Shown here: one piece after another, positions 13,105-58,528 of the stretch
How positions within the stretch are numbered: the first letter of the stretch is position 1
Layout: each line of letters opens with the position of its first letter
NCBI GenBank assembly: GCA_964513505.1
Contig: CAZENL010000004.1
Location: 1 to 62,411 of the forward strand
Reading direction: 5' to 3'
Origin: an uncultured Anaerolineaceae bacterium
GTDB taxonomy: Bacteria; Chloroflexota; Limnocylindria; Limnocylindrales; CSP1-4
DNA length: 62,411 bases
Made by a program: the position numbers and the translations under genes
The notes under the pieces: model-generated
The model's input: the letters and a program-made list of their open reading frames with translations, nothing else
Databases searched by the model: none
What the model was told of the DNA's origin: nothing

Positions 13105-13219
13105 GGCGTGCCCCTCCTATGGGCGGTGCGCCGGCGGCGGCCCCGGATAGGAGCCGGGCGAAGGGATGCCTCCCACCGCCGCCGGTGCCAAACCCTTTAA
13201 GCTGATTCGCGGCGATCAT
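13097..13219 (-). CDS. 40-aa bridging ORF between dnaB and initiator
   Basis: ATGA overlap with the dnaB stop; ends inside the initiator start. Confidence 0.35.
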   Translation of the reverse strand: MIAANQLKGFGTGGGGRHPFARLLSGAAAGAPPIGGARHG

Positions 13220-28391: not shown

Positions 28392-28403
28392 GGCGATCGA
28401 TCC

Positions 28404-28739
28404 TTATTTGATGAAACTGTGGAAGAGGGAAATGGCTGCGAAGATCATCGCGGCGGCCCCAACGATCCAGCCCCAGCCATCGCTAATCCCGCGGCCGCGC
28501 CCTTCTCTCTGATCGCTGTTGGAAGTCACCCGCGAAAGGCGGTCGTTTATGGCGGCGGTGATCCCGCTGGAGGCATTCTCAGCTTTGAGATTGGCTTCCT
28601 TCGCGGCGGCGAGAGCGGCGTCAACGGCTTTGCCGTTGTCTTCAAATCGCTGCGAATGGCGCTTGTCTACCGCCTCGATCTTTTCTTCGAGGCGGAGGAC
28701 GATCTGGTCGATGAGTTCGCGCGAATGGCGCTTCGACAA
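28404..28739 (-). CDS. coiled-coil protein with C-terminal TM
   Basis: TTG start with GGAG; ends WGWIVGAAAMIFAAISLF. Confidence 0.6.
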   Translation of the reverse strand: MSKRHSRELIDQIVLRLEEKIEAVDKRHSQRFEDNGKAVDAALAAAKEANLKAENASSGITAAINDRLSRVTSNSDQREGRGRGISDGWGWIVGAAAMIFAAISLFHSFIK

Positions 28740-28762
28740 GACCGTCTCTCCATGGGTAGCAT

Positions 28763-29089
28763 TTAAGAGGTTGCGGCGGCCGCCTGCTTGGCCTTGATAT
28801 CGGCCATGAGAGTTTCGTAGGCCGATTCCTCGCCCACCGCATAGGCGTCGAGCTCGGTCTGCGTCGGCGGCGTGCTGCTCTGGAACTGAGCGTAGAGCTT
28901 CTCGGCCTCCGGGATGCCGGCCTCGATGCCCTGGGCGATCTTCACGCCGATGGCGATCGCGGCGCCGGAGCCGGGGAAGGCGACGCCAAGCACCGTCTCA
29001 AGGACGGGCAGCGCGTCGGAAAGAACGGAGACGGCTTGGTCGAGCTCGGAGGGGGCCGCGGCGGCGGCCTGGGTGGCGGGATCGCTCAA
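28763..29089 (-). CDS. hypothetical protein of the lysis region
   Basis: ATGA/TGA-coupled to the lipoprotein. Confidence 0.6.
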   Translation of the reverse strand: MSDPATQAAAAAPSELDQAVSVLSDALPVLETVLGVAFPGSGAAIAIGVKIAQGIEAGIPEAEKLYAQFQSSTPPTQTELDAYAVGEESAYETLMADIKAKQAAAATS

Positions 29090-29472
29090 TGGGAAACTCC
29101 TTGCAAGGTGGCGTAGCTGTTGTAAGCGGCGAGCGCCTCGTTGAAGGCGGCCAGCGCGATCGCGGTCAGCGCGCTATTGCCGGAGCTGTTCGCCTGCTCG
29201 GCCTTGACGAGGGCGTTGTGGACGGCCGGCACCAGCACGCTCAGCTCGGAGAGCACCGCCGGGCTGGGGTTGCCGTTCTTGACATAGAGATCGAGCGCCT
29301 TCTCGGCGAGCGTTGTGGCCTGGGCGGCTTCGGCGACCGTCTTCGCCTGCGTCGGCGATGCGCCGCTGGTGGCGACCACCACATCGGAGACGGCGCTGCT
29401 GAACCATGTGCAGCCGGAAAGAGAGAACGCGGCGGCGAGGGCCAGGCCGGCGACGAGGGTCTTGAGGCGCAT
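29086..29472 (-). CDS. lipoprotein, possible spanin component
   Basis: Lipobox SLSG-C; lies after holin and endolysin. Confidence 0.65.
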   Translation of the reverse strand: MRLKTLVAGLALAAAFSLSGCTWFSSAVSDVVVATSGASPTQAKTVAEAAQATTLAEKALDLYVKNGNPSPAVLSELSVLVPAVHNALVKAEQANSSGNSALTAIALAAFNEALAAYNSYATLQGVSH

Positions 29473-29481
29473 GGGGACTCC

Positions 29482-29733
29482 TTAGAGCTTGGCCGCTGCC
29501 GAGGGCGTGACGGTCGTGGTGTAGAAGGTCTTGGCGATGATGGTCGACAGGCCGCCGATGATGGTGATGGCGATCGTCGCGTCATGTGCATAAGGCGCCG
29601 GCAGGAAAGGGGCGACCTGATTGAGCAGCTCGTTTGCCGAGACGAGGAAGGCGGTCGCGCCGGCGAGCCAGTTGACCTTCGAGGCCCAGGCTGACTTGAC
29701 GGTGACGGTGACTGGCTGGCCGCTTGAGCTCAT
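29482..29733 (-). CDS. putative holin
   Basis: 83 aa, two TMs, KSAWASKVNW motif, next to the endolysin. Confidence 0.6.
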   Translation of the reverse strand: MSSSGQPVTVTVKSAWASKVNWLAGATAFLVSANELLNQVAPFLPAPYAHDATIAITIIGGLSTIIAKTFYTTTVTPSAAAKL

Positions 29734-29786
29734 CGATCGATCCCCTTCGATTCCTTCGGCAAGCTACGTCCGGGGATGGCTCCGGG

Positions 29787-30314
29787 TCAATGCCCGTCAA
29801 CAGACCAGTGCGGCGCGTCGGCCGGCAGCTTTATGACGCCGAAGCTGGCCCCGATCGGCCAAAGATCGGCCTGGGCGGCGCAGGAATGAACGATCCCGCG
29901 CGCATCGGCCACCCGGATGGAGCCCTTCCATGAAACCGTCATGTCGATCGCCTGCCGCTTGGTGTGCTGGCTTACGAGCGCGGCAGGATAGGCGATCCCA
30001 TACCCCTCCTTCATGGCGGTGGCCGCCAGCCTGGCGCCGGTGTAATCGCCGGCATGGGTCCAGTCGATATCGACGCCGGCGAGCACAGGCACATCGGCCG
30101 GCTGCACTTCGCCGCTGGCGATCATGCAGCACCAGTGCATGAGGAAGGCCCGCTCGCTCGGCCGCCATGTCGCCCCGATCGAGATGGCGGCGCCGGCGCC
30201 CTCCAGCGACGCGATGAAGGAACGGACGCTATTCTGGAAGGGCTGGGCCAGATCCTCGATCGCCGCGCTGCCGGGGAAGCGAGGGCACCATTGCGGTCCT
30301 GAGAATTCCAGCAT
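29787..30314 (-). CDS. peptidase M15-like endolysin
   Basis: ATWRP, SQHTKRQAID (SxHx6D), DAPHWS. Confidence 0.75.
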   Translation of the reverse strand: MLEFSGPQWCPRFPGSAAIEDLAQPFQNSVRSFIASLEGAGAAISIGATWRPSERAFLMHWCCMIASGEVQPADVPVLAGVDIDWTHAGDYTGARLAATAMKEGYGIAYPAALVSQHTKRQAIDMTVSWKGSIRVADARGIVHSCAAQADLWPIGASFGVIKLPADAPHWSVDGH

Positions 30315-40696: not shown

Positions 40697-41224
40697 TTAT
40701 CGAGTCCCCAGCGATGAGCCCAGAATTACGTCATCGACGATCGCGCGCATCCCGTTATTGAACGGGCCGAGCTGGCGGGCGAGCGCAAAGCGCATGTAAG
40801 GGTGCTCCGGGATCGGGATCGGGTGCGGCTTGGTCTTGCGGGTAAAGACCATCGTGCCTTGCTGGATGCCGCCTGAGAAGCCCCCGCCATTGCCGACGAA
40901 GAAAGCCTGAAACTTGTCGGAGCCGGGGTGCTGGATAACGCCCCCCTCCTCCTGAATTCTGGCGTAGGGAATGGCGATGCCATCGATCCAAACGACGCCG
41001 CTGATCCGGCCGGCCGTCTCTTCCTGCATTTGAGCCTGGACGGCGTTATACATCGGCCCTTCGCCGGTGCGGAACATCGAGAGGATGTTGGACTTCACGC
41101 CATCGCGGAGGGCGAGCGTTTGGTCGGCTATGAAGCCGCGCATCCGGGTTTGTATTTCCGGCGCCAATCCCATGAGGTTGACCATCGCCTCGCGCGCACC
41201 GATGAGAACCGCCCGGATCGGCAT
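40697..41224 (-). CDS. HK97 gp10-like tail completion protein
   Basis: IPYARIQEEGG, IPEHPYMRFAL. Confidence 0.7.
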   Translation of the reverse strand: MPIRAVLIGAREAMVNLMGLAPEIQTRMRGFIADQTLALRDGVKSNILSMFRTGEGPMYNAVQAQMQEETAGRISGVVWIDGIAIPYARIQEEGGVIQHPGSDKFQAFFVGNGGGFSGGIQQGTMVFTRKTKPHPIPIPEHPYMRFALARQLGPFNNGMRAIVDDVILGSSLGTR

Positions 41225-42066
41225 TAGATCGGCGGCGTCTCGTTGCCCGATTGCGACACCGGGATTTCGTTATCGTCCATGCCGATATTGAACTGCGGCG
41301 TGACGCGATCGGGATTGAGCTCCTGAAGGAGCTTGTCCGACTGGCTGATCCCGCCGGCATAGGGCATCGCGCCGGCGCCGGTGAGGAGCGCCTGATTGTC
41401 ATACTCGATCGCCGCCTGCCGATAGGCGCGGGACCGGGCGCTGAGCGTGGTGCGGAGGTCGCGATCGACGGTATCGGCTTCCCGGGCGAACTTGGCGGCC
41501 AGGCTCCGGCAGAGCACGGCGGCGGCGCCATAGGAGGAGGAGCGAAGATTGATCGCGTGCAGGATTTCCGGGTCCGTGAACTGCTGATCCTTATAAACCG
41601 TGTCGCCGATCAGGAAGCGCACGCTGTCCTTGGCGCACAGGCGCGGATCGCCGGAATAAGTCCAGAGCGGCGACTGGCGCACCGAAAGGCGGCCGATCTG
41701 GCTGGTGGCCACCTGATCGTCCAGCGTCGTGAGCCGGATCGAGTAGATGTAGAAGGCCATGAGCGCGGCCGTCTCAGCCGCGGTCAGGATGAGCTTGAAC
41801 TGGCCAGAGCTGCCATCGCCAACCACCGTGATGCCGTCGCCGACCGTCTTGGTGATGACGGCGGCGCTTTGAAGATCGCGCTGGATCGTGAAGGCGATGC
41901 CGAGGGTCGAAAGATTGACGGGCTCGGGCGGATCATCGCCGTTCTGGACGGTGAAGAAGAAGCAAACGGAGTCGCCGGTAAAGAAGTTGATATCGGCTTC
42001 CGTCACCGCGACGAGGAGCCCCGCGGAGTTCTGGAAGAAGAAAAAGAAGATCGGGCCGGTTGCCAT
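41224..42066 (-). CDS. head-tail adaptor with extra N-terminal BppU-like beta domain
   Basis: C-half WTYSGDP..VRFLIGDT..FTDPEI..AAAVLCRSLAAKFAR. N-half GDS..F.V...GITV.....GQFKLILTAAETAAL..YSIRL. Confidence 0.65.
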   Translation of the reverse strand: MATGPIFFFFFQNSAGLLVAVTEADINFFTGDSVCFFFTVQNGDDPPEPVNLSTLGIAFTIQRDLQSAAVITKTVGDGITVVGDGSSGQFKLILTAAETAALMAFYIYSIRLTTLDDQVATSQIGRLSVRQSPLWTYSGDPRLCAKDSVRFLIGDTVYKDQQFTDPEILHAINLRSSSYGAAAVLCRSLAAKFAREADTVDRDLRTTLSARSRAYRQAAIEYDNQALLTGAGAMPYAGGISQSDKLLQELNPDRVTPQFNIGMDDNEIPVSQSGNETPPI

Positions 42067-42525
42067 TTAGGCGAAGAAGCCGGCCGCGAAGTGGCCAGTT
42101 GCGATCGTGCTGAAAAGCTGGATGGCCCCGAGATAGGCGGGCGAGCCGCCATCGTCCCACTTGCCGCCGGGATAGTCCTGAGCCCCGGCCGGCTCCAGCC
42201 ACACCACCGCGCCGCCGTCGAATGTCAGCCTCAGAGGGGCCACATCGAGGTTCTGCACATAGCGGCGCTTGGCGGTCGGCTGGTCAGGAAGCGTCGCTGC
42301 CCCGGCAACGAGAGCGCCTGATCCATCCACTGTGCCAGCCGTTGCGGTGGCCGGGCTGAAAGAGACCGGCAGGCGGTAGCCTGGCGCATCATCGACCACA
42401 ACCTCGGAGCCATCCGGCCCCCACGCCATGAGGTTGATGACGGAATAAACGCTGCCGGCGACGCGGGCCCAGAATGTCGGGCCCGTTCCGATTTGTGCGC
42501 CAGCTTCAACGCCTGTTTTCGGCAT
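42067..42525 (-). CDS. putative virion accessory beta-sandwich protein
   Basis: Beta-rich; lies between the fibre and the adaptor. Confidence 0.55.
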   Translation of the reverse strand: MPKTGVEAGAQIGTGPTFWARVAGSVYSVINLMAWGPDGSEVVVDDAPGYRLPVSFSPATATAGTVDGSGALVAGAATLPDQPTAKRRYVQNLDVAPLRLTFDGGAVVWLEPAGAQDYPGGKWDDGGSPAYLGAIQLFSTIATGHFAAGFFA

Positions 42526-42540: not shown

Positions 42541-45500
42541 TTAGCTGGCTTTGCGGAGGGTGGCGTGGATCGGCTGAGGATTGTCGTTCGCAGCCTTCAT
42601 CTTGAGCACGATGGCCGTCAAGGCCTCGACCTTGGCGCTGAGCTGGGCGCTCGCCTTGAGCTGGCCCTGGAGCTGGGCGATCTGCGCGCCCTGCTTCTTG
42701 ACCGTCGCCTCCAGCGCCGTGATCCGGCCGTCCTCGACCGCCTTAAGCGAGTAGAGGTCTTTGACGCCCCAGAGAGCGAGGAAAGCGAACGGCTCAGAGG
42801 CGGCGTGCCATAGGTCGTTCTTTTCCTGCGGGGGGGTAACGGCCCATCTTAGAGCCGCCGGCAGTGACGTATAAGCCTGCTGTGCGAAGACGCCAAAACG
42901 ACGCTCGGAAGGTCCGGTTTTTTGTATGTTCTGGTAGCGGTCGAACTCCGAAAGGTCGAGCGCTGCAATAGATTTGCGATACTCAGATTGATCCATTGCG
43001 CGCCTGATCTTTGTCCGAGCGTCAGAGATCGTCCCGTAGGTTCCGGTGATGTTGAAGGTTGATCCGGTCTGAGTAGCCTCAAGAACGGCGGCGCCACCGC
43101 CCTCGTAGAGCTTCCAAAAATTGTTGCCGGTGCCCTGATAGAAAACATACGTTCCGTCAGAGATACCAAAGGCGTATTGGCCTCCCGTAACGTAGAGTTT
43201 GTTTGTTGGGGTCGGAAAGGTCGTGGCGCCGATCAAAACACCGCCCGATGAATAAATTGTCCCCGCGCCAGTATTCGTCGTGCCGCCGACGAGGAAGCTG
43301 CCGTCAGTGCCAAGGTGAACCTTCTCGAAGCCATTGATATATAGCTTGATCGGTGCGGCAACATTTGTGCCAATCCCAATTCCATTCGTCCCCGTCGTTT
43401 GGATAGAGAGGCTGTCAACGATATTCAGTCCTGTGCCGCCGCTGCCCGTACCCCAATGAACCATATAGCTGTCTGTTGAGCCATTGTTGGCATGGAAACC
43501 AGCGTAGGCATTTGCGCCTGAACTTGTATTTATGGTTTTAAATTCGGTCGCAGCAGTTTGGTTGATCGTCTGTGTTACCAAACCGCTGAAGGTTGCCGCC
43601 GGCGCTGCGATAGTGCCAGTGAATGTTGCCGCCCCCGACGAGAAAGAACCGTCTGCACCACCCGCGCCGTAAACCTTTAGATTGTAAGATGTTTGCGAAG
43701 CCGGCGCGCCTCCAATACTGACCGTCGAATTACCGCCATTCGGGTTCCACAAGATCGTGGTGTAGCCGCCATTGCCTTTCAGGATATTGTTGTCAAATTC
43801 TACTTGACCGCTAAACGTCGCCGCCGCCGCCGTCAGCGTCCCGGTAGTGGTCGGGCTGGCCGAGAACATGAAATTGCCGGTGCCCGTCGCTCCCGTGCTG
43901 GTCACACCCTCGAACGTGGTGTGGCCGGTGACCGAAAGGGTGCCACCCAGCTTGGTTGCGCCGGCACCGACCCAAAGCGCATAGGGGTTGGTGATTGTGA
44001 CGCTGCCGGCGGCGAGCGGCGCGTTGTCGATATAGAGCGAGGCCGCGCTGTCGATCGTGACGGCCGAGCCATCGGTGATCGTCGGCTGATAGATCGAGAA
44101 CTTGTTGAAGCCCTTCGCCGTGGTGATGTGCGTGGTGCCGGTGACGGTGGTGGTCGCGCCGGTAACGTCCACATCATCGAGCGTGGCCGAGGCGGATGAG
44201 GCGATCGAGCTGGAGGCATTCGCCACCATCTGGGCCGTGCCGGTCAGGATGCCGGAGAAGTTGGCGGTCGCGGCGGTGAGTGTGCCCGTCAAAGTCTGAT
44301 TGGCGGAGAAGAGCAGGTTGCCCGTTCCGCTGGCGCCGGTCGGGGTGACGCCCTCGATCGTGGCATGGCCGGTGATATTCGGCGCATTGATGGTGGGCGT
44401 GGTCAGCGAGCCGTTGGTCGCGAAGACGAGGTTGCCGGTGCCGGTCTTGCCGGAGGCCACCGCCGTGTAGAAATCCGCGCCCGCCCCGCTGTTGAGGAAG
44501 GTCGCCATCCCCGCCGCCAGGCTGGAGACGCAGGAGCTGATCGAGCAGGCGGTGGCGTTAGTCAGGGTCAGCGAGGAGGGCGTGCCGCCCGCGCCATTGA
44601 ACAGCACCGGGGCGCCGGCCGAGCCGACATTGACCGCGAGCGCGGTCCCCACGCCGGTGCCGAGCCCTGTCAGGCCGCCGATCGGAAGGCCCGTCGCATT
44701 GGTCAGCGTGATCGAGGCCGGCGTGCCATAGGCGTTCGCGCCGCTGAAGGTCAGGGCGCCGGCGAGCGTCGAGCTGGAGGCGCCCAGCGCGATCGTGGTC
44801 GAGCCGATCGTGACGCTGGAATTGGTCAGCGACGCGTTGGCGATATTGCTGAGCGTGTTGCTGGAGCCGCTAATCGCCTTATTGGTCAGCGTCTGCGATC
44901 CGGTCAGCGTGGCGACGGTGCTGTCGATCGCGAACTGATTGGCGGAGAGCGTGAGGCCGGTGCCGGCGCTGTATTCGTTGACTCCCGCGATCTGGCCGAA
45001 GGTGATGTTTGTGACGCCGACCGTGATCGCGCTGGTGTTGGTATTCGTCCAGGCGGAGTTCTTCCAGAGCGTGCCGTTCTGGATGAAATAGGTCGAGGAG
45101 AGGATCTGCACCCCGGTGGTTGAGTCGGCGCAGCGCGTCCAGGCGCCGGCCGCCGAGACATAGCAGCCGTTGGTGGTCTGATCGGTTTCCGCCATGGCCA
45201 GCACGCGGCTGGCGCTGGTGAGCTGGCCGTCGATCGTCTGCTCGCCCGAGAGCGTGATGTTGGCCGTGGTGCGGACGAAAACCGCCTGCTTCCACTGGAT
45301 GCCATTGAGGGCGTTGGTGACGAAATTATAAACCGCGCTCTGAGTGGGGATGCGCGTCGCGCTCTGGGCCGCCAGCGCCGGATCATTGTCCACCACATTG
45401 GCCGCGAACATGGCCGTGGTCAGATTGGTGATCGAATTGTTGCTGGCGTTGATGCCCTTGTTGGTGAGCGTCTGGGAGCCCGAAAGCGTCGCCAGCGTCG

Positions 45501-46659
45501 CCACATCGCTCAGATCGGCCGAGGAGAGCACCACGGCGCCGGTCCGGCCGGCGACGGTGGTCACATTGGCGGTCAGCGCGCCGCCGGAGAAGCCCAGCCC
45601 GGCGCCCACGGTGACGTTGGAATTCCCGCCCGCCCCGTTGCCATAAAGGATCGAGGAGCCGGAAGTGGCCGGGTCATAATCGACCCCGGCCGTGGTGTTG
45701 GAGAAGCCGCCCGCGCCGTTGCCCTTCAGGATGGCCGAGCCGGAGGTCGCCGGGGCGTAGTCCGTGCCGCTGAGGGCGGCGGAGACGGTGCCGGCGGTTG
45801 CCTTGAGCAGGCCGGTCAGGCTGGCCGCGCCGCCCTGGGCGGCCGCCAAGTGCCCGCTGGTGATGTTGGAGGCGTTGGTGGTGTCCGTGGTCGCCGAGGC
45901 GGCCAAGCCGCTCACATCGCTCGCGGCGGGCTGGGCCTGAGCGACCGAGCCGTCCGTCCCGATTTGGGTAAGGAATTGATGGGAGACGGCCGCGAGGCTC
46001 TTGACGCCGCCCAGCGTGGTGGCGGCCGGGTTCGGCAAACGGGCGGCCGGGACCGTGCCGCTGGCCAGCGCCGAGGCGTTGAGGCTGGTCAGGGCGGCGC
46101 CGCTCAGGGCCGGGATATTGACCAGCGTGGTCGCGATCGAGCCGGCCGATGTGGTGACGTCGCCGGTCAGCGCCGGGAAGCGGGCGGCCGGGACCGTGCC
46201 GGTGATCAGATCGGTCGCCGAGCCGCTGGTGGCGATCGCCGCGAGCGTGGCGGCGCAGCCGGTGCTGCTGTCCGAAAGATCGGCGCAAGCGGGGCGCGCC
46301 TGGCCGACGCTGCCATCGGCCGTGAGGATCGAGGTCAGGAAGTTGTGCGAGACGGCCGCCTTGGAGAAGACGCCGCCAAGGCTGGCGACGCCCGGCAGGG
46401 GCAGGCGCGCGGCGGGCACGGTGCCGGTGGAAAGATCGGAGGCGCTCCCGCTCGTCGCGATCGGCGCCAAGCCCGACACATCGCCGGCCGCAAGGCTGAT
46501 CGATCCGCCCAGCGCAACGGCATGGGTGGAGATCGTGATTTGCGGGTTGGCGATGAAGCTGTTCGGGACCGGGACCGGGATGGCCTGCTTCAGGCCGGCC
46601 GAGCTGGCCGGGAGGGCCAGCGCCAGCAGCGCGAGTGCCGGGATGAGGAGCTTTTTCAT
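42541..46659 (-). CDS. large fibre/spike with N-terminal signal peptide and C-terminal peptidase S74 chaperone
   Basis: Start MKKLLIPALALLALALPASSA. Fibre motif VRTTANITLSGEQTIDG. S74 motif SDARTK..GVFAQQ plus a terminal coiled coil. Confidence 0.85.
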   Translation of the reverse strand: MKKLLIPALALLALALPASSAGLKQAIPVPVPNSFIANPQITISTHAVALGGSISLAAGDVSGLAPIATSGSASDLSTGTVPAARLPLPGVASLGGVFSKAAVSHNFLTSILTADGSVGQARPACADLSDSSTGCAATLAAIATSGSATDLITGTVPAARFPALTGDVTTSAGSIATTLVNIPALSGAALTSLNASALASGTVPAARLPNPAATTLGGVKSLAAVSHQFLTQIGTDGSVAQAQPAASDVSGLAASATTDTTNASNITSGHLAAAQGGAASLTGLLKATAGTVSAALSGTDYAPATSGSAILKGNGAGGFSNTTAGVDYDPATSGSSILYGNGAGGNSNVTVGAGLGFSGGALTANVTTVAGRTGAVVLSSADLSDVATLATLSGSQTLTNKGINASNNSITNLTTAMFAANVVDNDPALAAQSATRIPTQSAVYNFVTNALNGIQWKQAVFVRTTANITLSGEQTIDGQLTSASRVLAMAETDQTTNGCYVSAAGAWTRCADSTTGVQILSSTYFIQNGTLWKNSAWTNTNTSAITVGVTNITFGQIAGVNEYSAGTGLTLSANQFAIDSTVATLTGSQTLTNKAISGSSNTLSNIANASLTNSSVTIGSTTIALGASSSTLAGALTFSGANAYGTPASITLTNATGLPIGGLTGLGTGVGTALAVNVGSAGAPVLFNGAGGTPSSLTLTNATACSISSCVSSLAAGMATFLNSGAGADFYTAVASGKTGTGNLVFATNGSLTTPTINAPNITGHATIEGVTPTGASGTGNLLFSANQTLTGTLTAATANFSGILTGTAQMVANASSSIASSASATLDDVDVTGATTTVTGTTHITTAKGFNKFSIYQPTITDGSAVTIDSAASLYIDNAPLAAGSVTITNPYALWVGAGATKLGGTLSVTGHTTFEGVTSTGATGTGNFMFSASPTTTGTLTAAAATFSGQVEFDNNILKGNGGYTTILWNPNGGNSTVSIGGAPASQTSYNLKVYGAGGADGSFSSGAATFTGTIAAPAATFSGLVTQTINQTAATEFKTINTSSGANAYAGFHANNGSTDSYMVHWGTGSGGTGLNIVDSLSIQTTGTNGIGIGTNVAAPIKLYINGFEKVHLGTDGSFLVGGTTNTGAGTIYSSGGVLIGATTFPTPTNKLYVTGGQYAFGISDGTYVFYQGTGNNFWKLYEGGGAAVLEATQTGSTFNITGTYGTISDARTKIRRAMDQSEYRKSIAALDLSEFDRYQNIQKTGPSERRFGVFAQQAYTSLPAALRWAVTPPQEKNDLWHAASEPFAFLALWGVKDLYSLKAVEDGRITALEATVKKQGAQIAQLQGQLKASAQLSAKVEALTAIVLKMKAANDNPQPIHATLRKAS

Positions 46660-46661
46660 GT

Positions 46662-47132
46662 TTACCATTTCGCAAAGCCGGTGACGATCGGCGCGCCGGC
46701 GATGCAATAGATCGCCCCGCTATAGCCGGTGAAATCGTAGGAGCTGCCCTGAGGGATCGGGAAGCCGGTGCCGGTGGTGACGCCCGAGGTCTTGCCCCAA
46801 TAAACGACGCCGGTCGCCAGATTGTTGATGAGCTCGCGATGGATCGCGGCCGTGTCGCCATTGGCTACCAGTGTGGCCGATGTGCCGCAGCTTATCTGCG
46901 TCGGGGCGGTGGAATCGTTGCTCGTCTGTGGAGTGATCCAAACCGGCAAGCCGGTGGCGCCGCACGCGCCCGCCGTGAAGTTCGGGCTCGATGCCGGGTT
47001 GTAGCAATAGAGGATCGAGCGGCCGGGCGGCCACGCCGTGGTGAGCGGAATGCTCGCCGGCTGCGCCATCGCCGGGATGGTCGCGCCCAGGATGAGGAGG
47101 GCGGCCACGAAGAAGCTGCGGAAGGATTTCAT
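46662..47132 (-). CDS. signal-peptide protein in the structural operon
   Basis: MKSFRSFFVAALLILGATIPAMA-Q; 4 Cys. Confidence 0.7.
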   Translation of the reverse strand: MKSFRSFFVAALLILGATIPAMAQPASIPLTTAWPPGRSILYCYNPASSPNFTAGACGATGLPVWITPQTSNDSTAPTQISCGTSATLVANGDTAAIHRELINNLATGVVYWGKTSGVTTGTGFPIPQGSSYDFTGYSGAIYCIAGAPIVTGFAKW

Positions 47133-47196
47133 GCGGAGTATCTCCGGGAAGCTGAGCTGCCGCCGACCCGCGAGGGCCGGCGGCGAGCTGGGAGGC

Positions 47197-48225
47197 TTAG
47201 AGCTCGAAGGCCGAGACGCTCAAGTTCGCCAGGCCGATATGCGAGGCGTTGGCGACCGCCTTCGCCGCCAAATCGTACCAATAGGCGGTGCCGAGCGTAA
47301 GCCCGGTCACAACCACCTGCATCGAGAACGGCGTGAACACATCGGCGGCAACGACCGTCGCCGGGTTGGTGTATTCGAGAATGTTGCCAACCTGCGTTCC
47401 GGCGAGCGCCGCATTGCTGCCCGGCGCGGCGCCGGTTCCATACGAGAGCTGCGCCAGAATGCCGTCGCCGGCGGTGGTGACCGAGCTGATAAGATTGCCC
47501 GAGATCATCAAAACCACCTTGCCCGACTTGTTCGGGGTGATGGCGCCGGCAATGCCCTGCATCGTGAAGGCCGCGGTGCTGTTGGGCGCGGTCGGATTGG
47601 CCGGCTGCGCCTGATAAGTGGCAGCGGCCGAGGCGATCGTGGCGTTCCATTTGCCGGCGACCGTGCTCCAGAGAACGACCGTCTGACCCGGGGCCAGCCA
47701 ATAGGCGGTGGCGGTGGCGACGCCGTTGATGGTGTCGTTGACAGCGCCATAGACGGCGCAGCCTGCCGCGCCATTGTTGGTGATGACAGCAACGCCACCA
47801 CCACCAGCCGGCGGAGCGAGAACGCTATCCAGCGCCGTCGCGCAAACCGAAATGGTGTTGATGTTGGCCACAAGCGGGAGAGCGGCCGCCTTCGTGCCGC
47901 CGGCATGAGCGGTCAGCGCATCGGCAGAGGAGAACACCACATTGCCGCCAGCGGCCTCGAAGATCGTCCAAGTCGGCGACACGCTGGTGTTCGTGTTCAT
48001 GTAGAGCTTCTTGTTGGTCGTATCGACCAGCAGATCGCCCGGGAGCGCGATGCCGAAGAGCGTGCCCGCGCCGCCGTTAACCGGCGCGCCGGCATTGCTC
48101 CAGACATTCGGCATCTGAATGTTGGTGCCGCCGGCGTTGATCCAGATTGCGCTCGTCGAGAGCAGCAAGAGCTTGGCTTTGATTTTGCCCTTGAAGCGTT
48201 GCATTACGCCTGAATTGGAAGCCAT
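47197..48225 (-). CDS. putative head fibre/decoration protein
   Basis: Start MASNSG (AAAAGGAG RBS); Ala/Gly/Thr-rich and beta-rich; follows the capsid gene. Confidence 0.6.
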   Translation of the reverse strand: MASNSGVMQRFKGKIKAKLLLLSTSAIWINAGGTNIQMPNVWSNAGAPVNGGAGTLFGIALPGDLLVDTTNKKLYMNTNTSVSPTWTIFEAAGGNVVFSSADALTAHAGGTKAAALPLVANINTISVCATALDSVLAPPAGGGGVAVITNNGAAGCAVYGAVNDTINGVATATAYWLAPGQTVVLWSTVAGKWNATIASAAATYQAQPANPTAPNSTAAFTMQGIAGAITPNKSGKVVLMISGNLISSVTTAGDGILAQLSYGTGAAPGSNAALAGTQVGNILEYTNPATVVAADVFTPFSMQVVVTGLTLGTAYWYDLAAKAVANASHIGLANLSVSAFEL

Positions 48226-48281
48226 TGAAATCTCCTTTTGTCGTTGGAATTGTGGTTGTTGAGGGAGAGCGAAGTGGCGCT

Positions 48282-48743
48282 TTACTTCCCCGGCGCCGGC
48301 GGAGTGCGGCCCGCGCACAGGGCGTGGGCTTCTTCCTTGTTGAGCGGCGCCGGATTGAGGCGCAGCCCTTCGATTACATCATACCGGCCGAGGCCAGTGT
48401 GGATCGCATAGCGGAAGCCAGCAGCGCCGCCCTGGGCGAGCTGCTTCTCCAGCTCGGCGCAGCGGGCGAGAGCGGCCGCAAGCTGGGCGCTCCCATCGGC
48501 GCCGCCGGGCCGCATCGAGGTCAGCCGGATATAACCGGCGCTTTCGAGTTCGCGGCGGTTCTTCATCCGCAGGAGAACGTCGCTCGGGATATAGCGGCCG
48601 ACGCGGGCGCGGGCGGTGTTGCCCGGCTGGCGGCAATCATCCGGTGCATAGACCGGGAGCTCGAAGGATTTGCAGATCAGCGCGCCGGCGACTTGGGCGG
48701 CGGGGATTGGCGCGGGGGTAGCGCGTTGGTTGCGGTTGGCCAT
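48282..48743 (-). CDS. hypothetical head-module protein
   Basis: Start MANRNQ (AAGAGGA RBS). Confidence 0.6.
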   Translation of the reverse strand: MANRNQRATPAPIPAAQVAGALICKSFELPVYAPDDCRQPGNTARARVGRYIPSDVLLRMKNRRELESAGYIRLTSMRPGGADGSAQLAAALARCAELEKQLAQGGAAGFRYAIHTGLGRYDVIEGLRLNPAPLNKEEAHALCAGRTPPAPGK

Positions 48744-48765
48744 TGGTTCGTCCTCTTGCGATCGG

Positions 48766-48818
48766 AAAGAAAAGGAGGGCAAGGGCGCAGCAGCTCAGCC
48801 GCCGCGCCCCGCCTGCCC
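48766..48818 (-). terminator. intrinsic terminator/attenuator after the capsid gene
   Basis: GGGCGCGGC/GCTGCGCCC stem followed by CCTTTTCTTT on the minus strand. Confidence 0.5.
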
Positions 48819-48822
48819 CGGC

Positions 48823-49818
48823 TTAGTTGTTGGTGATGTTGTAGAAGAAGAAGCCCAGATCGGAGCCGACGAGCTTCATGTCGAAGCTCATTTCGGTTTC
48901 GATGCGGACCGTGCCCAGGCCGCGCAGCGGCACCGGGATATTGCTCACGCGGACGCCCATGTTGTTGAGGCCGGTGAAGCCCGCCCATGGGAAGACATAC
49001 CCCGCGCTCGGCACCATCAAGCCAGGCGCCGGCGCCGCATAAGCGAGCAGGGCATGGTTGCCGGTGACGAAGGAGAAGCTGTCAGCGGCGCCTTCCGCGG
49101 CGGAATTGTAAACCGCCTTGGAGACAACGACCTTCTCCACATCGAAGGCCTCGGCGAGGAGCTGCGGGGTGATTTTGCCCGCATAGGCCGGCGAGGTGTA
49201 CTTGATGCGATCGATCACCAGCGGGTGCTTCTTCAAGGCCTTATAGACCTTGTAGCCGAGCACCAGCACATTCGGCTCCATGCCGGTATTTTCCAGCACC
49301 ACAGTCTGGGCGTCGGAAATATCGGTGAAGGGATCGCCGTCCGCATCATTGTTCCAATAGGTGCGGGTGGTGGTGCCGTTGCCATTGGCCGCGCCGGCGA
49401 CTTCGTTCGCCCACAGGCCGGTGGTGAAGTACTTCGTGACGAAGATGCGGTCCTTCTTGATGAGCATCTTCTGCATGAGCATCCGGGTCGCCCCGATTTC
49501 CGGCTCGACGGCCGGATCGGCATTGCGGCGCATCTGCTCGCCGATATCCTGATGGAGCGCATAAACCGCCGCCAGATAGGAATCGGTGTCGAGGTTGTAG
49601 CCAGTGCCAGCCGACTCGGTGGCATCCGCGCGCTGCTGGGCTTCATCGCGGAAGAAGTCGCCCTTGCGATACCGGAAGTATTTGTCGGACTGGTGCTGGA
49701 CGGGCACCGGCGGGAAAACCACATCGGCGATGTAGGAGTCCGCCTTCTGAAGATAGGCGGTGGCGATCATCGATAGCGCTGCGTCAATATGGACAGCGCC
49801 CTGTGTTGGTTGCGGCAT
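48823..49818 (-). CDS. major capsid protein
   Basis: VHIDAALSMIATAY, IADVVFPPVPVQHQSDKY, PNVLVLGYKVYKALKKHPLVIDRIKY. Confidence 0.9.
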   Translation of the reverse strand: MPQPTQGAVHIDAALSMIATAYLQKADSYIADVVFPPVPVQHQSDKYFRYRKGDFFRDEAQQRADATESAGTGYNLDTDSYLAAVYALHQDIGEQMRRNADPAVEPEIGATRMLMQKMLIKKDRIFVTKYFTTGLWANEVAGAANGNGTTTRTYWNNDADGDPFTDISDAQTVVLENTGMEPNVLVLGYKVYKALKKHPLVIDRIKYTSPAYAGKITPQLLAEAFDVEKVVVSKAVYNSAAEGAADSFSFVTGNHALLAYAAPAPGLMVPSAGYVFPWAGFTGLNNMGVRVSNIPVPLRGLGTVRIETEMSFDMKLVGSDLGFFFYNITNN

Positions 49819-49919
49819 AGTCGTACTCCGATCTTTTCTGGGAGCGCTGCCCTTCAGCAGCTATTGAGAGGGGATCGCCCGGCTGGGATCAGCCGGGCTT
49901 CCCTCGGATGGCGAAAGGC

Positions 49920-50291
49920 TTAGGCGGTTGGGCCGGTCAGCATGACGGTGCCGAGCGTGCCGGCGGCCGCAGCTTCGAGAGCGACGCCAACCTGTACGCC
50001 GGCGCCCTTGGTGATCAGCTTGCCGCTGGCCGCCTCGACCTGAAGGGCATCGCCGGCGACAACGCCTGCGGTGCCGATCTGGGCCTTCGTGATGCCGACG
50101 AAGCCGATATCCGCAGCCTGGCCGGCGAGCGGCTGGTTCTGGAGGATGCCGGAAATGCCAACGGCGGCGCTGGCGAGAATGACCTGCCGGTCAGTGGTCG
50201 ATTGCACCACCGCGAAGAACTGCTTCGCGGAAAGATCGGTGCCGGCGACGCGCTGGCCGCCATCGTGCAGAAGAGGGCCTTCAGTGGCCAT
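49920..50291 (-). CDS. capsid cement/decoration protein (DUF2190-like)
   Basis: 123 aa; GILQNQP.AGQAADI..GITKA..G. Confidence 0.75.
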   Translation of the reverse strand: MATEGPLLHDGGQRVAGTDLSAKQFFAVVQSTTDRQVILASAAVGISGILQNQPLAGQAADIGFVGITKAQIGTAGVVAGDALQVEAASGKLITKGAGVQVGVALEAAAAGTLGTVMLTGPTA

Positions 50292-50357
50292 GGTGAACTC
50301 CTTGGGTTTTGCTGTTTCGGAAATGGACGGCCGGGAAGCCCGCGCCGCAGGCGCAGG

Positions 50358-51839
50358 CTAGGAGGGGCGGCCGACTTCGCTCTTGTAGAGCGCCACAGCC
50401 TCGGCCATGCCGTAAGTAGCCGGCGTCTCGTACACTTTGGCGAAGGCCTGATCGATGGTCAGGCCCTTCTCGATGCCCTGGAGCTCCTTGGCCTTGGCCA
50501 TGAGCTGATCGTAGCCCTTGCCGCCGGTCTGGGCGTTGGAGCCGCTCTCGCCGAAAAGCTTGCCGACGCGGATCTGCTCGCGCATCGCCTTGATCTCGGT
50601 TTCGAGCTTGCCGATCGACACCGCATCGCCGGTGAAGGCCTTGCGGAGCGTCTCGCCGAAATCGGCCGTGAAGCCCATGTCCGTGGCGCGCTTGGTGAAG
50701 TCGGCCACGGCGGCCGCCTCGTCGCGCTTCAGGATATCGGCCGCCTGGCTGGCGATCTTGGCGGCTTGGCTCTTGGCGAAATTGAAGCCGTTCTCGGTGG
50801 GGAAATCGGCCTTCGTGAGCACCGTGCCGTCTTCCGCCCGGAAGGCGTTGCCGGCGGCGATCGACTTGTTGATCTTCTCGACGCTCTCATCGTCATCGTC
50901 CATGGGATTGTCGGACATGTGCTTGTCGCGCTCGGCGGCCGACATGGCCTGGAAGGCATCCTTGCCGCCCTTCGGCATCTTGGCGCCCTTCTTGCCCATG
51001 AAGTCGGCGTGCTTGTCGCTCATCTTCTCGACCTTGCCCTCGGCGCCCTTCTTCTTGTCGGCCTCTTCCTTCTCGGCCATCGCCTTCAGAACATCGGCCT
51101 CGGTCGCCGTGGCGGGGAGCCCCAGCAGTTTCTTGATCGCTTCCATGTTGTGAACTCCGTCAGCATTCTCCGCGATCCCAGCGGCCAGGGCCTTCTTCAT
51201 CTCGTCGGGCATGACGCCCTTTAGATGGTCTGCAAACTGCTCGATGGTTTCCTCGATCAGCTTTTCCTTGTCGGCGGCATCGTCGCACAGGATCGAGCAG
51301 ATCGATTCCCGGAGCGTGTCCGTCGCTTCCCAGAACTCCGTGTAAAAGTCCTGGCTGATTTCCTTCGCCTTCAGCGCGTCATCGAAGAGCGTCGCCTCCT
51401 CGGGATCGCCGGCGCCCACATCCTTGGCGATCGCCGCCGCAAGGGCGCTCCCATCGCCGCCCAGCTCGGGGAAGAGCTTGGCGATCGGCGCCTCGATGGC
51501 CTTGACGAAGGCGGCGCGATCGACGCGCCAGGCTTCCGGCAGCTCCAGCTTGAGCACGGCCGCGCGCTCGATGATGTGCTTCTTGATCGCCGGCCGGGCT
51601 TTGGCCTTGACCAGCTCGTAGCCCTGCACCGCGAGCGGCAGATCGGCCGCCTTCTCGATCGGGAACATGCCGTGCGCGTCGATGCGCTTCATGTAGGCCG
51701 TCACTTCGGCCGGGACGGTCTTGGCCTTCTTGCTCAGCATGACCTTGACGCCTTCGCCGGCGCCGCGGGTGACGCTGGAGACTTCCTTCACCACGATATT
51801 GCGAAGGATATGGTGGGCGATCTTCTTGAAGTCGATCAT
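50358..51839 (-). CDS. capsid scaffold protein
   Basis: Start MIDFKK; KEVSSVTRGAG; FPI..AIKKHIIERAAVL (DUF6582-like); charged helical body. Confidence 0.7.
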   Translation of the reverse strand: MIDFKKIAHHILRNIVVKEVSSVTRGAGEGVKVMLSKKAKTVPAEVTAYMKRIDAHGMFPIEKAADLPLAVQGYELVKAKARPAIKKHIIERAAVLKLELPEAWRVDRAAFVKAIEAPIAKLFPELGGDGSALAAAIAKDVGAGDPEEATLFDDALKAKEISQDFYTEFWEATDTLRESICSILCDDAADKEKLIEETIEQFADHLKGVMPDEMKKALAAGIAENADGVHNMEAIKKLLGLPATATEADVLKAMAEKEEADKKKGAEGKVEKMSDKHADFMGKKGAKMPKGGKDAFQAMSAAERDKHMSDNPMDDDDESVEKINKSIAAGNAFRAEDGTVLTKADFPTENGFNFAKSQAAKIASQAADILKRDEAAAVADFTKRATDMGFTADFGETLRKAFTGDAVSIGKLETEIKAMREQIRVGKLFGESGSNAQTGGKGYDQLMAKAKELQGIEKGLTIDQAFAKVYETPATYGMAEAVALYKSEVGRPS

Positions 51840-51841
51840 TT

Positions 51842-52735
51842 TCAGGCTCCAGCCGGGATGAGGTGGCCGGAGCCACCGATCGAGAATTCGGCGCGCTCGC
51901 CGCGCTTGTGGGCCGCCCAAACATCGGCATCGTCCACCTTGAAGCCGGTCCACCAGCCTTCCATGCCGAGGTCGATGCCGAGCGCGTCCTGCTTCTGCTT
52001 CGTGAACATCATGCTTTCGACGAGCCGGCCGACGCCAATCTGATCGTGCATGTCGCCCTGAAGGCGCGAGTTCAAAACATAGTTGTAGGCAGCGGGCTCC
52101 ATTTCCTCGGGCGGAATGGCGTGGCCCTGCTTGTCGATGATGAGCTCGCCGCCCTTGGTCATCACGGAGGCCCAGCCGAAGAGGAGCTGCTGATCCTCGA
52201 CCGCCTTCGCCAGCTTGAAGGGGATCGAAATCCCCTTGAGCACATTGGTGACGGGCTCCAAATCCTTGAAGCGGACCGAGGCGGTTGTCTCGCCATTGAG
52301 CCATTGGGCGGCGAGGCGATGATGGCCGTCGCCGATATAGTTCTTGCCGGCATGGCGCACCACCACCGGGAGCTTCGCAGCCGCAACGCCGCTATCTTGG
52401 ATCGCCTTCACTTTCACCGGATCGACGCGATCCTGCATGGCATGGAGACTATCGAGCGGCACTTCGACCTGCGGAAGCTTCTCGCTATCGGTCAGCGCGC
52501 CGAAGAAGCGCGGAACCTGATCGGGGCGAAGCGAGCCCAGGGCGTTGGGATCGTAGAGGAAGGGCGATTTCGCGGTGCTCTCATCGTGCGGCTGGAGATC
52601 GCGCTTGGCGATGCCCGTCTTCAGCTCCGTGAATGAGCGCGCCTTCTTCTTGCCCCCGTTGCCGAGGGCGGTATCGACATGCACCGAGGCCGCCGAAATG
52701 TCCTTTACGAGCTGGGCGAAAGAGCGAGCGCTCAA
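51842..52735 (-). CDS. ParB/Srx domain fused to XkdF-like prohead protease
   Basis: TTG start (TTGA overlap). LHAMQDRV..PVVVRHAGKNYIGDGHHRLAA (ParB). QLLFGWAS..DKQGH..GDMH..GRLVES..FSIGG (XkdF). Confidence 0.75.
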   Translation of the reverse strand: MSARSFAQLVKDISAASVHVDTALGNGGKKKARSFTELKTGIAKRDLQPHDESTAKSPFLYDPNALGSLRPDQVPRFFGALTDSEKLPQVEVPLDSLHAMQDRVDPVKVKAIQDSGVAAAKLPVVVRHAGKNYIGDGHHRLAAQWLNGETTASVRFKDLEPVTNVLKGISIPFKLAKAVEDQQLLFGWASVMTKGGELIIDKQGHAIPPEEMEPAAYNYVLNSRLQGDMHDQIGVGRLVESMMFTKQKQDALGIDLGMEGWWTGFKVDDADVWAAHKRGERAEFSIGGSGHLIPAGA

Positions 52736-53196
52736 TTCAGAACCGAGCCGCCGATTGTGCCGGTGACATGGGCGGTGCCGGCATTGTTGGCTACCACCAC
52801 CGTGACGCGCCATGTCAGCGGGAGAGGCGAATTCGCGGCCGTGTTGGCGGCAACAACCACGCCGGGGTAAACCACCATTTCGATCGTGCCGGTTCCGGTC
52901 TGCGCCGCGCCGGCGAGGAGCGTGTAATACTTGCCGCTCGCCGCATCCTTGCCCTCGATCGTCACGGTGACGGTGGCGGTGGTCATCGTGGTCAGATCGA
53001 CGATGAAGATGCCGCCGCGCACCGAGCAGTTGGTTTGATCGGCGGAATGCAGCGTGGCGGCGAGCTGGGCCGTCATCGTCAAAAGCGGCGTGTCGGAATT
53101 CTTCCCCGAGCAGTTGTTGTCGGCCATCGCCGGCGAGCTGGCCAGCAGCGCGAAGGCGAACAGGAACGGGACCGCGAGGGCCTTGAGGAGGCGCAT
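52732..53196 (-). CDS. signal-peptide beta-sandwich protein in the head module
   Basis: MRLLKALAVPFLFAFALLASSPAMA-D; 2 Cys. Confidence 0.7.
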   Translation of the reverse strand: MRLLKALAVPFLFAFALLASSPAMADNNCSGKNSDTPLLTMTAQLAATLHSADQTNCSVRGGIFIVDLTTMTTATVTVTIEGKDAASGKYYTLLAGAAQTGTGTIEMVVYPGVVVAANTAANSPLPLTWRVTVVVANNAGTAHVTGTIGGSVLN

Positions 53197-57943: not shown

Positions 57944-58528
57944 CTAACCCATGAGCGCAATCGACTCTCGCGGAATCGAAATAGCACCTTTGCGCCCGAG
58001 CATGTCAAGCAGGATGCCGACCCGCTCCCGTCGATCGAAGGCGACGAGGCCGACCAATCCTTCGAGCGGCCCATCGATCACGCGGACGCGCGAGCCGGGT
58101 TTAAGCTGTTGTTTTTTCGGCGCGAGGAGCCGGAAGACGCCGCCAGAGGATGCCATCGCCTCCTTGAGGGCCGGAACGACCCGCGCCGGCAGGGCGAGCG
58201 GCGCCTTCGGTCGAAAGCGCCGGGCGATTTCCTCGCGGCTGGTCGGAATGCCGCTCGCTCGCTGGATGCCGAGGATCGTATGGACGCCCTTGAGCTGGAG
58301 GATTTTGGGCCAATCGTCCTCCGCATCCTCGGCGGCATCGAATTCGGCGAAGATGTAGCTGGGATAAAGCGGCCGCTGGACGATCGACTTCCGGCGGGCG
58401 TGGCTGATTTCCCGCTCCATGAGGGGGAGGAAGCTGCCGAAGCGCTGCTCTGGGATTTCGGCGATCGCTTGGCTGACTCTGGCCTCGTTGCCGGGAACGG
58501 TCTGGACAACATACCAAGCCCGCGCCAT
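57944..58528 (-). CDS. NusG/RfaH-family transcription antiterminator
   Basis: NGN domain WYVVQTVPGNE, PLYPSYIFAEF; KOW domain LKPGSRVRVIDGPLEGLVG. Confidence 0.9.
   Translation of the reverse strand: MARAWYVVQTVPGNEARVSQAIAEIPEQRFGSFLPLMEREISHARRKSIVQRPLYPSYIFAEFDAAEDAEDDWPKILQLKGVHTILGIQRASGIPTSREEIARRFRPKAPLALPARVVPALKEAMASSGGVFRLLAPKKQQLKPGSRVRVIDGPLEGLVGLVAFDRRERVGILLDMLGRKGAISIPRESIALMG

Follow-up and report, generated by a model that had tools for sequence, protein, structure and literature searches.

The DNA analysed here, positions 1 to 62,411 of contig CAZENL010000004.1 (the window), has a guanine-cytosine (GC) content of 64% and makes up nearly all of a metagenomic contig of about 63.45 kb. 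Other assemblies carry circularly permuted forms, so the window is a complete or near-complete siphovirus genome of about 63 kb. Attention is given to three minus-strand genes of its late operon, which encode a large tail-fibre-like protein (the fibre) and two small proteins of 156 and 154 amino acids (p156 and p154), and all of which begin with leaders of the Sec/signal-peptidase-I type. The head part of this operon comprises genes for a NusG-like protein, terminase, a Mu-type portal, a MuF-like protein, p154, an S78_2 prohead protease and a scaffold; it is followed by genes for a cement-like protein, the major capsid protein (phrog_1005), a 153-amino acid protein, a 342-amino acid protein, p156, the fibre and a 152-amino acid protein, and ends with connector proteins, a tape measure, an RcGTA-like distal tail and a 1041-amino acid host-specificity protein. 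Roseobacter phage RDJLphi1 and Pseudomonas phage KPP23 have capsid proteins about 42% identical to that of the window, and in RDJLphi1 the capsid-to-neck interval is without a fibre cassette. Megablast of the operon against 50,697 phage records found no nucleotide-level relative. The RcGTA-like tail module, proteins with lipoboxes and a twin-arginine (Tat) type signal suggest a diderm host, probably an alphaproteobacterium; a scan of genome contigs returned only six distant signal-less p154 relatives, and the phage host was not identified thereby. The genes, leaders and signal-less neighbours discussed below are as follows.

42541..46668, minus strand: fibre gene, an open reading frame and called gene of 1375 amino acids (1372 amino acids from the ATG at 46659)
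46594..46668, minus strand: predicted fibre signal peptide, 25 codons, MVNMKKLLIPALALLALALPASSAG, predicted cut before LKQAIPVPVPNSF (LKQ)
46662..47132, minus strand: p156 gene, a predicted 156-amino acid secretory precursor with four Cys, its stop overlapping the fibre start
47064..47132, minus strand: predicted p156 signal peptide, 23 codons, MKSFRSFFVAALLILGATIPAMA, predicted cut before QPAS
52732..53196, minus strand: p154 gene, a predicted 154-amino acid secretory precursor, situated between the genes for the MuF-like protein and the prohead protease
53122..53196, minus strand: predicted p154 signal peptide, 25 codons, MRLLKALAVPFLFAFALLASSPAMA, predicted cut before DNNC
47197..48225, minus strand: gene for a signal-less 342-amino acid protein directly upstream of p156, with no Pfam, PHROG or PDB match
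42067..42525, minus strand: gene for a signal-less, Cys-free 152-amino acid protein, 15 nucleotides downstream of the fibre gene

Each leader has an n-region of +2, an uncharged run of 18-20 residues with a mean Kyte-Doolittle value of 1.9-2.1 and a core rich in Leu, Phe and Ile, and small residues at positions -3 and -1. The residues before the predicted cleavage are S-A-G in the fibre and A-M-A in both p156 and p154. This n-h-c anatomy agrees with the original prediction, made from the letters of the window, that the three proteins carry signal peptides. The leader is present in all syntenic orthologues examined (3/3 fibres, 4/4 p156 and 12/12 close p154 proteins), and the syntenic relatives L001, L002 and L008 keep their leaders. 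The motif A-x-A is followed by QPA in 4/4 p156 orthologues, while the leader of p154 ends in A-x-A followed by xNC in 12/12 close orthologues. Identity among orthologues is 45-59% in the leaders versus 54-73% in the next 40 residues, and for the fibre in L001 and L002 it is 49% in the leader versus 73% in the mature N-terminus; leaders that diverge faster than mature N-termini are expected of signal peptides.

True starts downstream of the hydrophobic segment, or homologues that lack the signal, had been named beforehand as findings that would count against export. The homologues examined keep the signal, as described above, and the idea of a downstream start was rejected. A Shine-Dalgarno sequence lies 6-12 nucleotides upstream of each signal-encoding ATG and is conserved in relatives: p156 has GGAG 8-12 nucleotides upstream, kept in L001 and L002, and p154 has AAGGA. 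The internal Met codons in the c-regions of p156 and p154 of the window are missing from their orthologues, and no in-frame start after the leader is common to the fibres of the three genomes. The fibre gene itself stood as first described, while its start was revised. The ATG at 46668 overlaps the p156 stop (ATGGTAA) and is the only one present in L001; it is most likely the true start and gives a protein of 1375 amino acids, the ATG at 46659 (1372 amino acids) lying three codons downstream.

The second feature of the three proteins is their cysteines. In p156 these are at positions 43, 57, 82 and 143 and in p154 at positions 29 and 57; those of the fibre form three pairs.

46255..46287, minus strand: fibre Cys pair 1, Cys128/Cys138 in the 1375-amino acid numbering (125/135 in the 1372-amino acid numbering)
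45130..45165, minus strand: fibre Cys pair 2, Cys502/Cys513 (499/510)
44530..44547, minus strand: fibre Cys pair 3, Cys708/Cys713 (705/710)

The counts given in the original prediction (six in three close pairs in the fibre, four in p156 and two in p154) are exact. Under random placement over 1350 residues, the probability that six Cys fall in three pairs no more than 11 residues apart is 7.6e-5. The two closest fibre relatives have 8 and 12 Cys, all in close pairs, and the signal-less 1041-amino acid tip protein has 8 scattered Cys.

In four families or modules, particular Cys pairs go together with the presence of a signal, by counts that are not phylogenetically corrected and in which some clades are single events. 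In the p154 family, Cys29/Cys57 are found in 13/18 signal-flagged versus 0/32 signal-less sequences. For p156, the phrog_30212 set of 164 representatives (no more than 50% mutual identity) has C/C at the equivalents of Cys82/Cys143 in 26/45 flagged versus 1/102 unflagged sequences; unflagged proteins carry V/I/L and G/A at these positions, and the single unflagged protein with the pair looks like a missed signal. Residues 440-590 of the fibre form a domain common to cultured-phage proteins annotated as tail fibre or head decoration, and here the Cys pair is found only in the signal-bearing clade, with I/V/L and A/S/T in 41/41 signal-less homologues. The fourth case comes from an unrelated group of IMG/VR phages of about 50% GC, in which a signal-bearing and a signal-less fibre have in common a 277-amino acid module of 62% identity. 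The copies differ exactly at the two Cys, with Ala at these places in the signal-less one (GGTNCSASSITCFNNITG versus GGTNATSASITAFNNITG), and a second repeat differs likewise. Among 120 fibre homologues the number of Cys per 1000 amino acids is 11.5 in signal-bearing proteins, mostly as even numbers per protein, versus 3.4 in signal-less ones, and among 76 IMG/VR fibres with complete N-termini, 20 of which have a signal, the median densities are about 12.7 versus 2.0. With four families and several lineages concerned, a link to an oxidising folding compartment is hard to escape.

The fibre is a mosaic. According to a segment map against the relatives P0002 and P0003, its N-terminal 185 amino acids and residues 213-614 are common to relatives and its distal 600 amino acids are unique. 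The conserved mature N-terminus, LKQAIPVPVPNSFIANPQ, extends over about 20-40 residues only, among three relatives. The 517 fibre homologues are mostly phage fibre-like proteins, cultured phages are matched in one internal domain only, and PDB sequence searches with the fibre and with its C-terminus gave no match. No domain is common to the fibre and the 1041-amino acid host-specificity protein or other proteins of the window.

42541..43026, minus strand: S74-like C-terminal region, a putative intramolecular chaperone/autoprotease, from Ser1215 (SDARTK motif) onwards, with a coiled coil after it

The motif ISDARTK at residue 1215 of 1375 corresponds to S-D-x-x-x-K with its Ser-Lys dyad, and homologues positive for PF13884 have SDERIK, SDKRLK and SDQRLK at equivalent places. 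The C-terminus aligns at 29% to that of P0003, and both P0002 and P0003 carry precomputed PF13884 hits.

The remaining cassette proteins have few recognisable relatives. Pfam and PHROG scans of the cassette found nothing beyond phrog_30212, a domain of unknown function that corresponds to the C-terminal 80 or so amino acids of p156, and a sub-threshold S74 match in the fibre; by profile-profile comparison, the p154, p156-like and 342-amino acid proteins are unrelated to each other. An AlphaFold2 model of p156 built from four sequences (predicted local distance difference test, pLDDT, 45) has no usable fold, a 57-sequence p156 alignment was too diverse for a locus scan, and tblastn with p156 and with a signal-less p156-like protein found no cultured relative among the 50,697 phage records. 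Mature p154 is modelled as a jelly-roll beta-sandwich (AlphaFold2, pLDDT 88.9). A fold search returned generic jelly-roll matches only, the best compact one being XepA (PDB 6i56) with a template modelling (TM) score of 0.53 and a root-mean-square deviation of 3.3-4.3 Å, and a PDB sequence search with the p154 profile returned nothing useful. The p154 family has 61 relatives, many of them signal-less, and its one cultured match is a protein of Ralstonia phage PQ43W annotated as hypothetical.

The positions of these genes are more informative. In two divergent phages p154 sits between two essential head genes, and signal-less relatives of p154 and p156 occupy head-module positions, either following the capsid gene or placed between those for portal and scaffold. 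A spike-like protein is the neighbour of such relatives in two Gram-positive prophages. Signal-less p154-like proteins of Cohnella and Paenibacillus prophages (L031 7851-9568 and L033 7935-10310) lie between the capsid gene and a pectate-lyase-like spike gene, before the connector genes. This suggests a link of the p154 family with spikes or fibres near the capsid in Gram-positive phages too. The 342-amino acid protein shares its core with a 144-amino acid protein of the fibre-less relative L008, and has in addition an insertion of about 65 amino acids and a C-terminal extension of about 147 amino acids, which are found in fibre-bearing relatives only. The gene for the 152-amino acid protein is kept with the cassette in L001 and L002 and is absent from L008. 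From this distribution we infer that the 342-amino acid protein is a candidate virion-side adaptor, with the 152-amino acid protein as a second possibility.

Signal-bearing, Cys-rich, fibre-like proteins are also found in the structural regions of several unrelated uncultured phages, of 43-65% GC. There are four in a row in L011 (5763-14491), five in L094 (4975-12617) and three in L042 (2714-8588); these runs, at 55-58% GC, consist of large proteins whose N-termini resemble signals and which have 8-21 Cys each, and Cys-free large structural proteins are encoded immediately upstream. In L057 an exported fibre comes directly after a capsid-like gene, while in L109 one occupies a similar slot just before connector-like genes. 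A further case is P0016 of L010, an SU10-like podovirus, although translation from an internal ATG at codon 28 could there produce a protein without the signal and with a canonical fibre N-terminus. The fibre genes of L013-L022 come after those for two small signal-bearing proteins, one of which is p156-like. About a quarter of the sampled fibre homologues carry signals, and some of these are clearly cellular. A set of sister phages is of particular interest. One has a signal-less, Cys-free, full-length fibre that starts with an anchor domain of about 125 amino acids. In L019 (6281-10886) and L021 (7298-12342), both from IMG/VR, the anchor domain is a separate signal-less protein of 214 amino acids, followed after 2-4 nucleotides by a signal-bearing fibre of 1319 or 1465 amino acids with 12 Cys in six pairs. 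The arrangement resembles a fibre divided in two, with a cytoplasmic anchor borne on the particle and a shaft that is exported, and by analogy the extension of the 342-amino acid protein and the co-occurring 152-amino acid gene of the window hint at a similar division. Neither the exported fibre of L019 nor its p156-like neighbour had a cultured relative by tblastn against the 50,697 phage records.

The three exported genes appear to belong to one late transcript.

57944..58528, minus strand: gene for a NusG-like protein (PF02357, E = 2.3e-15), heading the late operon just before the terminase genes

This protein probably acts as an antiterminator on the long late operon of the phage, and L008 has a NusG-like gene at the same place; the position at the operon head suggests a single antiterminated transcript that spans the three genes. 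Promoter-like and terminator-like sites are not in excess between 40000 and 58000 (4 versus 2.8 and 17 versus 12.9 expected) by a consensus scan that is weak for an alphaproteobacterial host. The GC content of the three-gene region is ordinary, the intergenic gaps are tight, and the p156 and fibre genes overlap.

Export and oxidative folding of the fibre, p156 and p154 are considered very probable. The leaders and their conservation strongly support the view that all three are Sec-type secretory precursors cleaved by signal peptidase I, and there is strong support for their being late-transcript products that would be translocated unfolded into the periplasm of a diderm host and stabilised there by disulfides. 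The part of the original prediction that concerned export and disulfides was thus upheld, by retained leaders, secure starts and the covariation of signals with Cys in four families or modules. The fibre may be able to trimerise after translocation without cytoplasmic helpers because it brings its own C-terminal S74-type chaperone; it would trimerise in the periplasm and then cut the chaperone off.

Tailed-phage morphogenesis is, in textbooks, entirely cytoplasmic. Where the exported proteins go is a question of its own, and the answer favoured here, in which confidence falls a little short of even, is that they become accessory ornaments of the virion: once the compartments merge, they would dock on an adaptor that was assembled in the cytoplasm. 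The ornaments would be a long fibre on the side or head, p156 as its small, translationally coupled partner, and p154 with its jelly-roll. A core particle of capsid, connector, tail and the 1041-amino acid tip protein would assemble in the cytoplasm and bear a signal-less adaptor, for which the 342-amino acid protein with its cassette-specific extension is the best candidate, while the exported parts accumulate in the periplasm. Holin lesions in the inner membrane, or lysis, would then merge the compartments, the exported parts would meet the particle, and the conserved mature N-terminus of the fibre would dock on the adaptor. The phage might benefit in two ways: parts that have to last outside the cell would fold under oxidising conditions, and a sticky receptor-binding fibre would be kept apart from the cytoplasmic assembly line. 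A role in the virion is suggested because the genes seem to share one late transcript without an excess of promoters or terminators, because the fibre mosaic, with a conserved N-terminus and a variable distal part, is typical of receptor-binding fibres, and because the signal-less relatives of p154 and p156 occupy head-module positions. The S74-like end, and the domain that cultured phages have in proteins annotated as tail fibre or head decoration, likewise point to a virion-type protein, and a chaperone of its own would suit a fibre that folds after Sec translocation. Docking on an adaptor is suggested by the split fibre of L019 and L021 and by the extension of the 342-amino acid protein that occurs only with the cassette; on the same grounds the attachment to virions at lysis that had originally been proposed is plausible.

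Several points weigh against this account or its parts. Close relatives are all metagenomic. Docking after mixing would have to be fast and efficient. A p154 with a signal is present in L008, which has no exported fibre, and therefore the three proteins are not one obligatory set. The adaptor role of the 342- and 152-amino acid proteins is drawn from co-occurrence in three genomes only. The signal-peptide calls come from a heuristic with a false-positive rate of roughly 5%, which flagged 8/67 called proteins of the genome, among them one obvious false positive, three lipoproteins and one Tat-type protein. The S74 chaperone of the original prediction is favoured by the SDARTK motif and the alignment to P0003, but the fibre scores below the Pfam cut-off for PF13884 (E = 0.031, 15.0 bits versus 22 bits), although model positions 1-56 of 58 are covered. 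Disulfides of virions can also arise once particles are released, with no export involved (PMC13576161); the argument therefore rests on the covariation of signals with Cys and not on paired Cys alone.

The strongest alternative is that the fibre is exported together with p156 and p154 and stays off the virion. The proteins would act in the envelope or periplasm or be released freely, masking receptors on debris or neighbouring cells, blocking superinfection, or serving as an adhesin or decoy. Although this is somewhat less probable than docking on the virion, much of the evidence fits it. Export is well supported, and the fibres of Bdellovibrio known as MAT show that the combination of a signal, a trimeric fibre, an S74 end and disulfides works off virions (PMC10769870). 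Signal-bearing fibre homologues include the cellular ones mentioned above, and receptor-side modules are common to signal-bearing and signal-less fibres of sister phages, as would be the case for a decoy. Remodelling of the host surface has been proposed for phage genes with Sec signals (PMC10367356). Llp of phage T5 is a precedent for receptor masking by a late-made protein. Against this alternative, a Sec signal by itself does not bring a trimer of 1350-amino acid chains through the outer membrane, and the vicinity encodes no partner for secretion; without contact with the virion it would be difficult to account for the split fibres and for the signal-less neighbours that accompany the cassette, and the head-module positions of the signal-less p154 and p156 relatives are typical of particle proteins. 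The adhesin or decoy that had been offered as the second option of the original prediction gains from the support for export but fails in one expectation. With no domain shared between it and the 1041-amino acid host-specificity protein, the fibre does not duplicate the receptor binder of this phage, and the idea of a decoy copy was rejected for this genome since the fibre has no domain in common with other window proteins.

It is very unlikely that the N-termini are uncleaved signal anchors, or tethers like those of signal-arrest-release (SAR) proteins, from which the proteins are freed at holin-triggered depolarisation. SAR endolysins and the long debate on T4 RI provide cases among late phage proteins (PMC8385771), and uncharged runs of 18-20 residues are fairly long; yet the small -3/-1 residues are kept after the core, the A-x-A is invariant in 12/12 p154 and 4/4 p156 proteins, which speaks against anchors because an uncleaved anchor has no reason to keep it, and the Leu/Phe/Ile-rich cores are not of the Gly/Ala/Ser composition typical of SAR domains. 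Slightly more doubtful still is that the genes are lysogenic-conversion morons, that is, that they encode a prophage-expressed envelope adhesin like Lom and Bor of lambda, unrelated to the lytic cycle. The gene lom is located among the lambda tail genes, and the cassette between the capsid and connector genes varies among relatives. However, there is no promoter-like or terminator-like signal around the genes, p156 and the fibre overlap, the gaps are tight and the GC is not deviant, no integrase or obvious lysogeny module was recognised among the called genes examined, and in two divergent phages p154 has an essential head gene on either side. Least credible is that the N-termini are not export signals at all, being gene-calling artefacts, propeptides removed by the prohead protease, or chance Ala/Leu-rich coding: such peptides do arise from high-GC DNA, prohead-protease cleavage has been invoked for the signal-like N-termini of capsid proteins of Porphyromonas gingivalis phages (PMC10367356), and the internal ATG of P0016 would yield a signal-less canonical fibre N-terminus, but the Shine-Dalgarno positions, the lack of conserved internal starts, the n-h-c plan and A-x-A kept while the leader sequence diverges, and the occurrence of such leaders in phages of 43-65% GC all speak against it, and the coupling of leaders with Cys in four families has no explanation here.

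To return to docking of exported ornaments on the virion, a more general statement can be ventured, with somewhat less confidence than for the window itself. Tailed phages of diderms may have a second, periplasmic branch of virion morphogenesis, in which Sec-exported, Dsb-oxidised ornaments (accessory fibres and small beta-sandwich proteins) are joined non-covalently to adaptors on particles built in the cytoplasm, between holin triggering and envelope rupture; it would have arisen repeatedly as ordinary fibre or decoration modules of the cytoplasm gained a signal peptide and Cys pairs, sometimes by the splitting of a fibre into an anchor that stays behind and a shaft that is exported, and would apparently be common in uncultured phages. 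Should exported parts indeed become attached to the particle, the Sec, signal peptidase and Dsb functions of the host would count as phage assembly factors and the timing of lysis as an assembly step. Virion proteomes and host-range determinants predicted by "cytoplasmic" logic would be incomplete, and receptor-binding proteins of this kind would have to be expressed in the periplasm when made recombinantly. Should they instead remain apart from the particle, secretion of large tail-fibre-like adhesins or decoys would be common among phages, which would be an unrecognised layer of phage-host and phage-phage interaction. The rule that links signals with Cys sorts phage structural-module proteins by folding compartment, and is applicable to any phage catalogue.

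Other genes of the window with signals, unusual cargo or odd features are listed here.

8836-9150, minus strand: gene for a 104-amino acid protein of the Tat type, N-terminus MTTRRGFLAGMLASAAVAPIVLA with a twin-arginine signal, no family match
6597-6800, minus strand: gene for a predicted lipoprotein, lipobox LLAG followed by C
22036-22404, plus strand: gene for a predicted lipoprotein, lipobox LLSG followed by C
29086-29472, minus strand: gene for a predicted lipoprotein, lipobox LSG followed by C
431-1585, minus strand: gene for a 384-amino acid protein with an Asp/Asn beta-hydroxylase domain of the LpxO/AspH type (PF05118, E = 4.8e-10)
1829-2677, minus strand: neighbour of the beta-hydroxylase gene, with a sub-threshold match to enzymes dependent on pyridoxal phosphate
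51842-52684, minus strand: prohead protease gene (Peptidase_S78_2), its N-terminal part with a ParB/sulfiredoxin-like DGHHRLAA motif
41224-42066, minus strand: gene for a 280-amino acid connector-region protein (phrog_1732 and phrog_1084)

None of the three predicted lipoproteins matches a PHROG family. The one at 22036-22404 has a glycine-zipper segment, and the one at 29086-29472 is encoded in a likely lysis cassette (27942-30314) together with holin-like and membrane-anchored proteins. The Asp/Asn beta-hydroxylase gene is unusual cargo for a phage, and host lipid A or a phage protein are candidate targets of its product. Cultured relatives label the equivalent of the prohead protease "DNA methyltransferase/prohead protease". 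The N-terminus of the 280-amino acid protein, MATGPIFFFFFQ, is odd and phenylalanine-rich, with a second FFF run soon after. DnaB, RecT and a ParB-like protein are also encoded (13216-14715, 19154-20500 and 20534-21994); with no integrase recognised among the genes examined, the phage may be virulent or a plasmid-like prophage.

Full-text searches of the literature, with a coverage that leaves out most subscription journals, found no report of Sec-exported tailed-phage fibres or of the signal-cysteine rule, and an exported, disulfide-bonded fibre in the structural operon of a tailed phage is a route that was not found described. Each component does have parallels. Spanins, the T4 antiholin RI, Lom and Bor of lambda and Llp of T5 are phage-encoded, made late or from a prophage, and use host Sec and signal peptidases (in part PMC8385771), and the window itself encodes lipoproteins of this sort. 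These are small proteins of lysis, exclusion or conversion; none is known to be an S74-bearing, mosaic, fibre-like protein or to have signal-less kin in head modules. The premise of the original prediction, that structural proteins of tailed phages normally lack export signals, needs some qualification, as exported proteins from phage late regions are well known, but the kind of protein exported here is unusual. Filamentous phages have virion proteins with signal peptides (pIII and pVIII), disulfides in pIII that involve DsbA, and assembly outside the cytoplasm; they differ in that inoviruses are extruded without lysis and have no cytoplasmic capsid, whereas the element in the window is a tailed double-stranded DNA phage with terminase, portal and an HK97-type capsid protein. 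The nearest earlier remark concerns prophages of P. gingivalis, which contain genes of unknown function with Sec/signal-peptidase-I signals, suggested to act on the host envelope, and no fibre architecture, Cys covariation or link to a structural cassette or adaptor was reported in that survey (Matrishin et al. 2023, PMC10367356). XepA of PBSX, the best compact match to the p154 model, is prophage-encoded and named as exported, but belongs to the lysis cassette of a Gram-positive element; with a TM score of 0.53 and 12% identity the match is at the level of a generic beta-sandwich, and homology to p154 is not claimed.

The closest parallels are with trimeric fibres. Phage fibres and spikes with an S74 chaperone, such as pb1 of T5 and the endosialidases of K1F and phi92, have a C-terminal Ser-Lys chaperone that drives trimer folding and is later cut off, as predicted for the fibre of the window, and are exchangeable receptor-binding accessories; they differ in that they carry no export signal, fold while still in the cytoplasm and are part of the particle by the time of lysis. 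The MAT fibres of Bdellovibrio bacteriovorus (Caulton et al. 2024, PMC10769870) begin with a signal peptide and continue as a long trimer resembling phage tail fibres, often with an S74 end that carries the SDxxxK motif; they have mosaic tips and disulfides and act outside the cytoplasm. The PDB sequence search with the fibre gave no match to MAT fragments or to any solved structure. MAT fibres are encoded by chromosomal genes of the predator, whose own surface is bound by an N-terminal domain of about 130 amino acids (PMC10769870), while the gene for the fibre of the window lies in a phage late structural operon and its product has a different, short conserved N-terminus.

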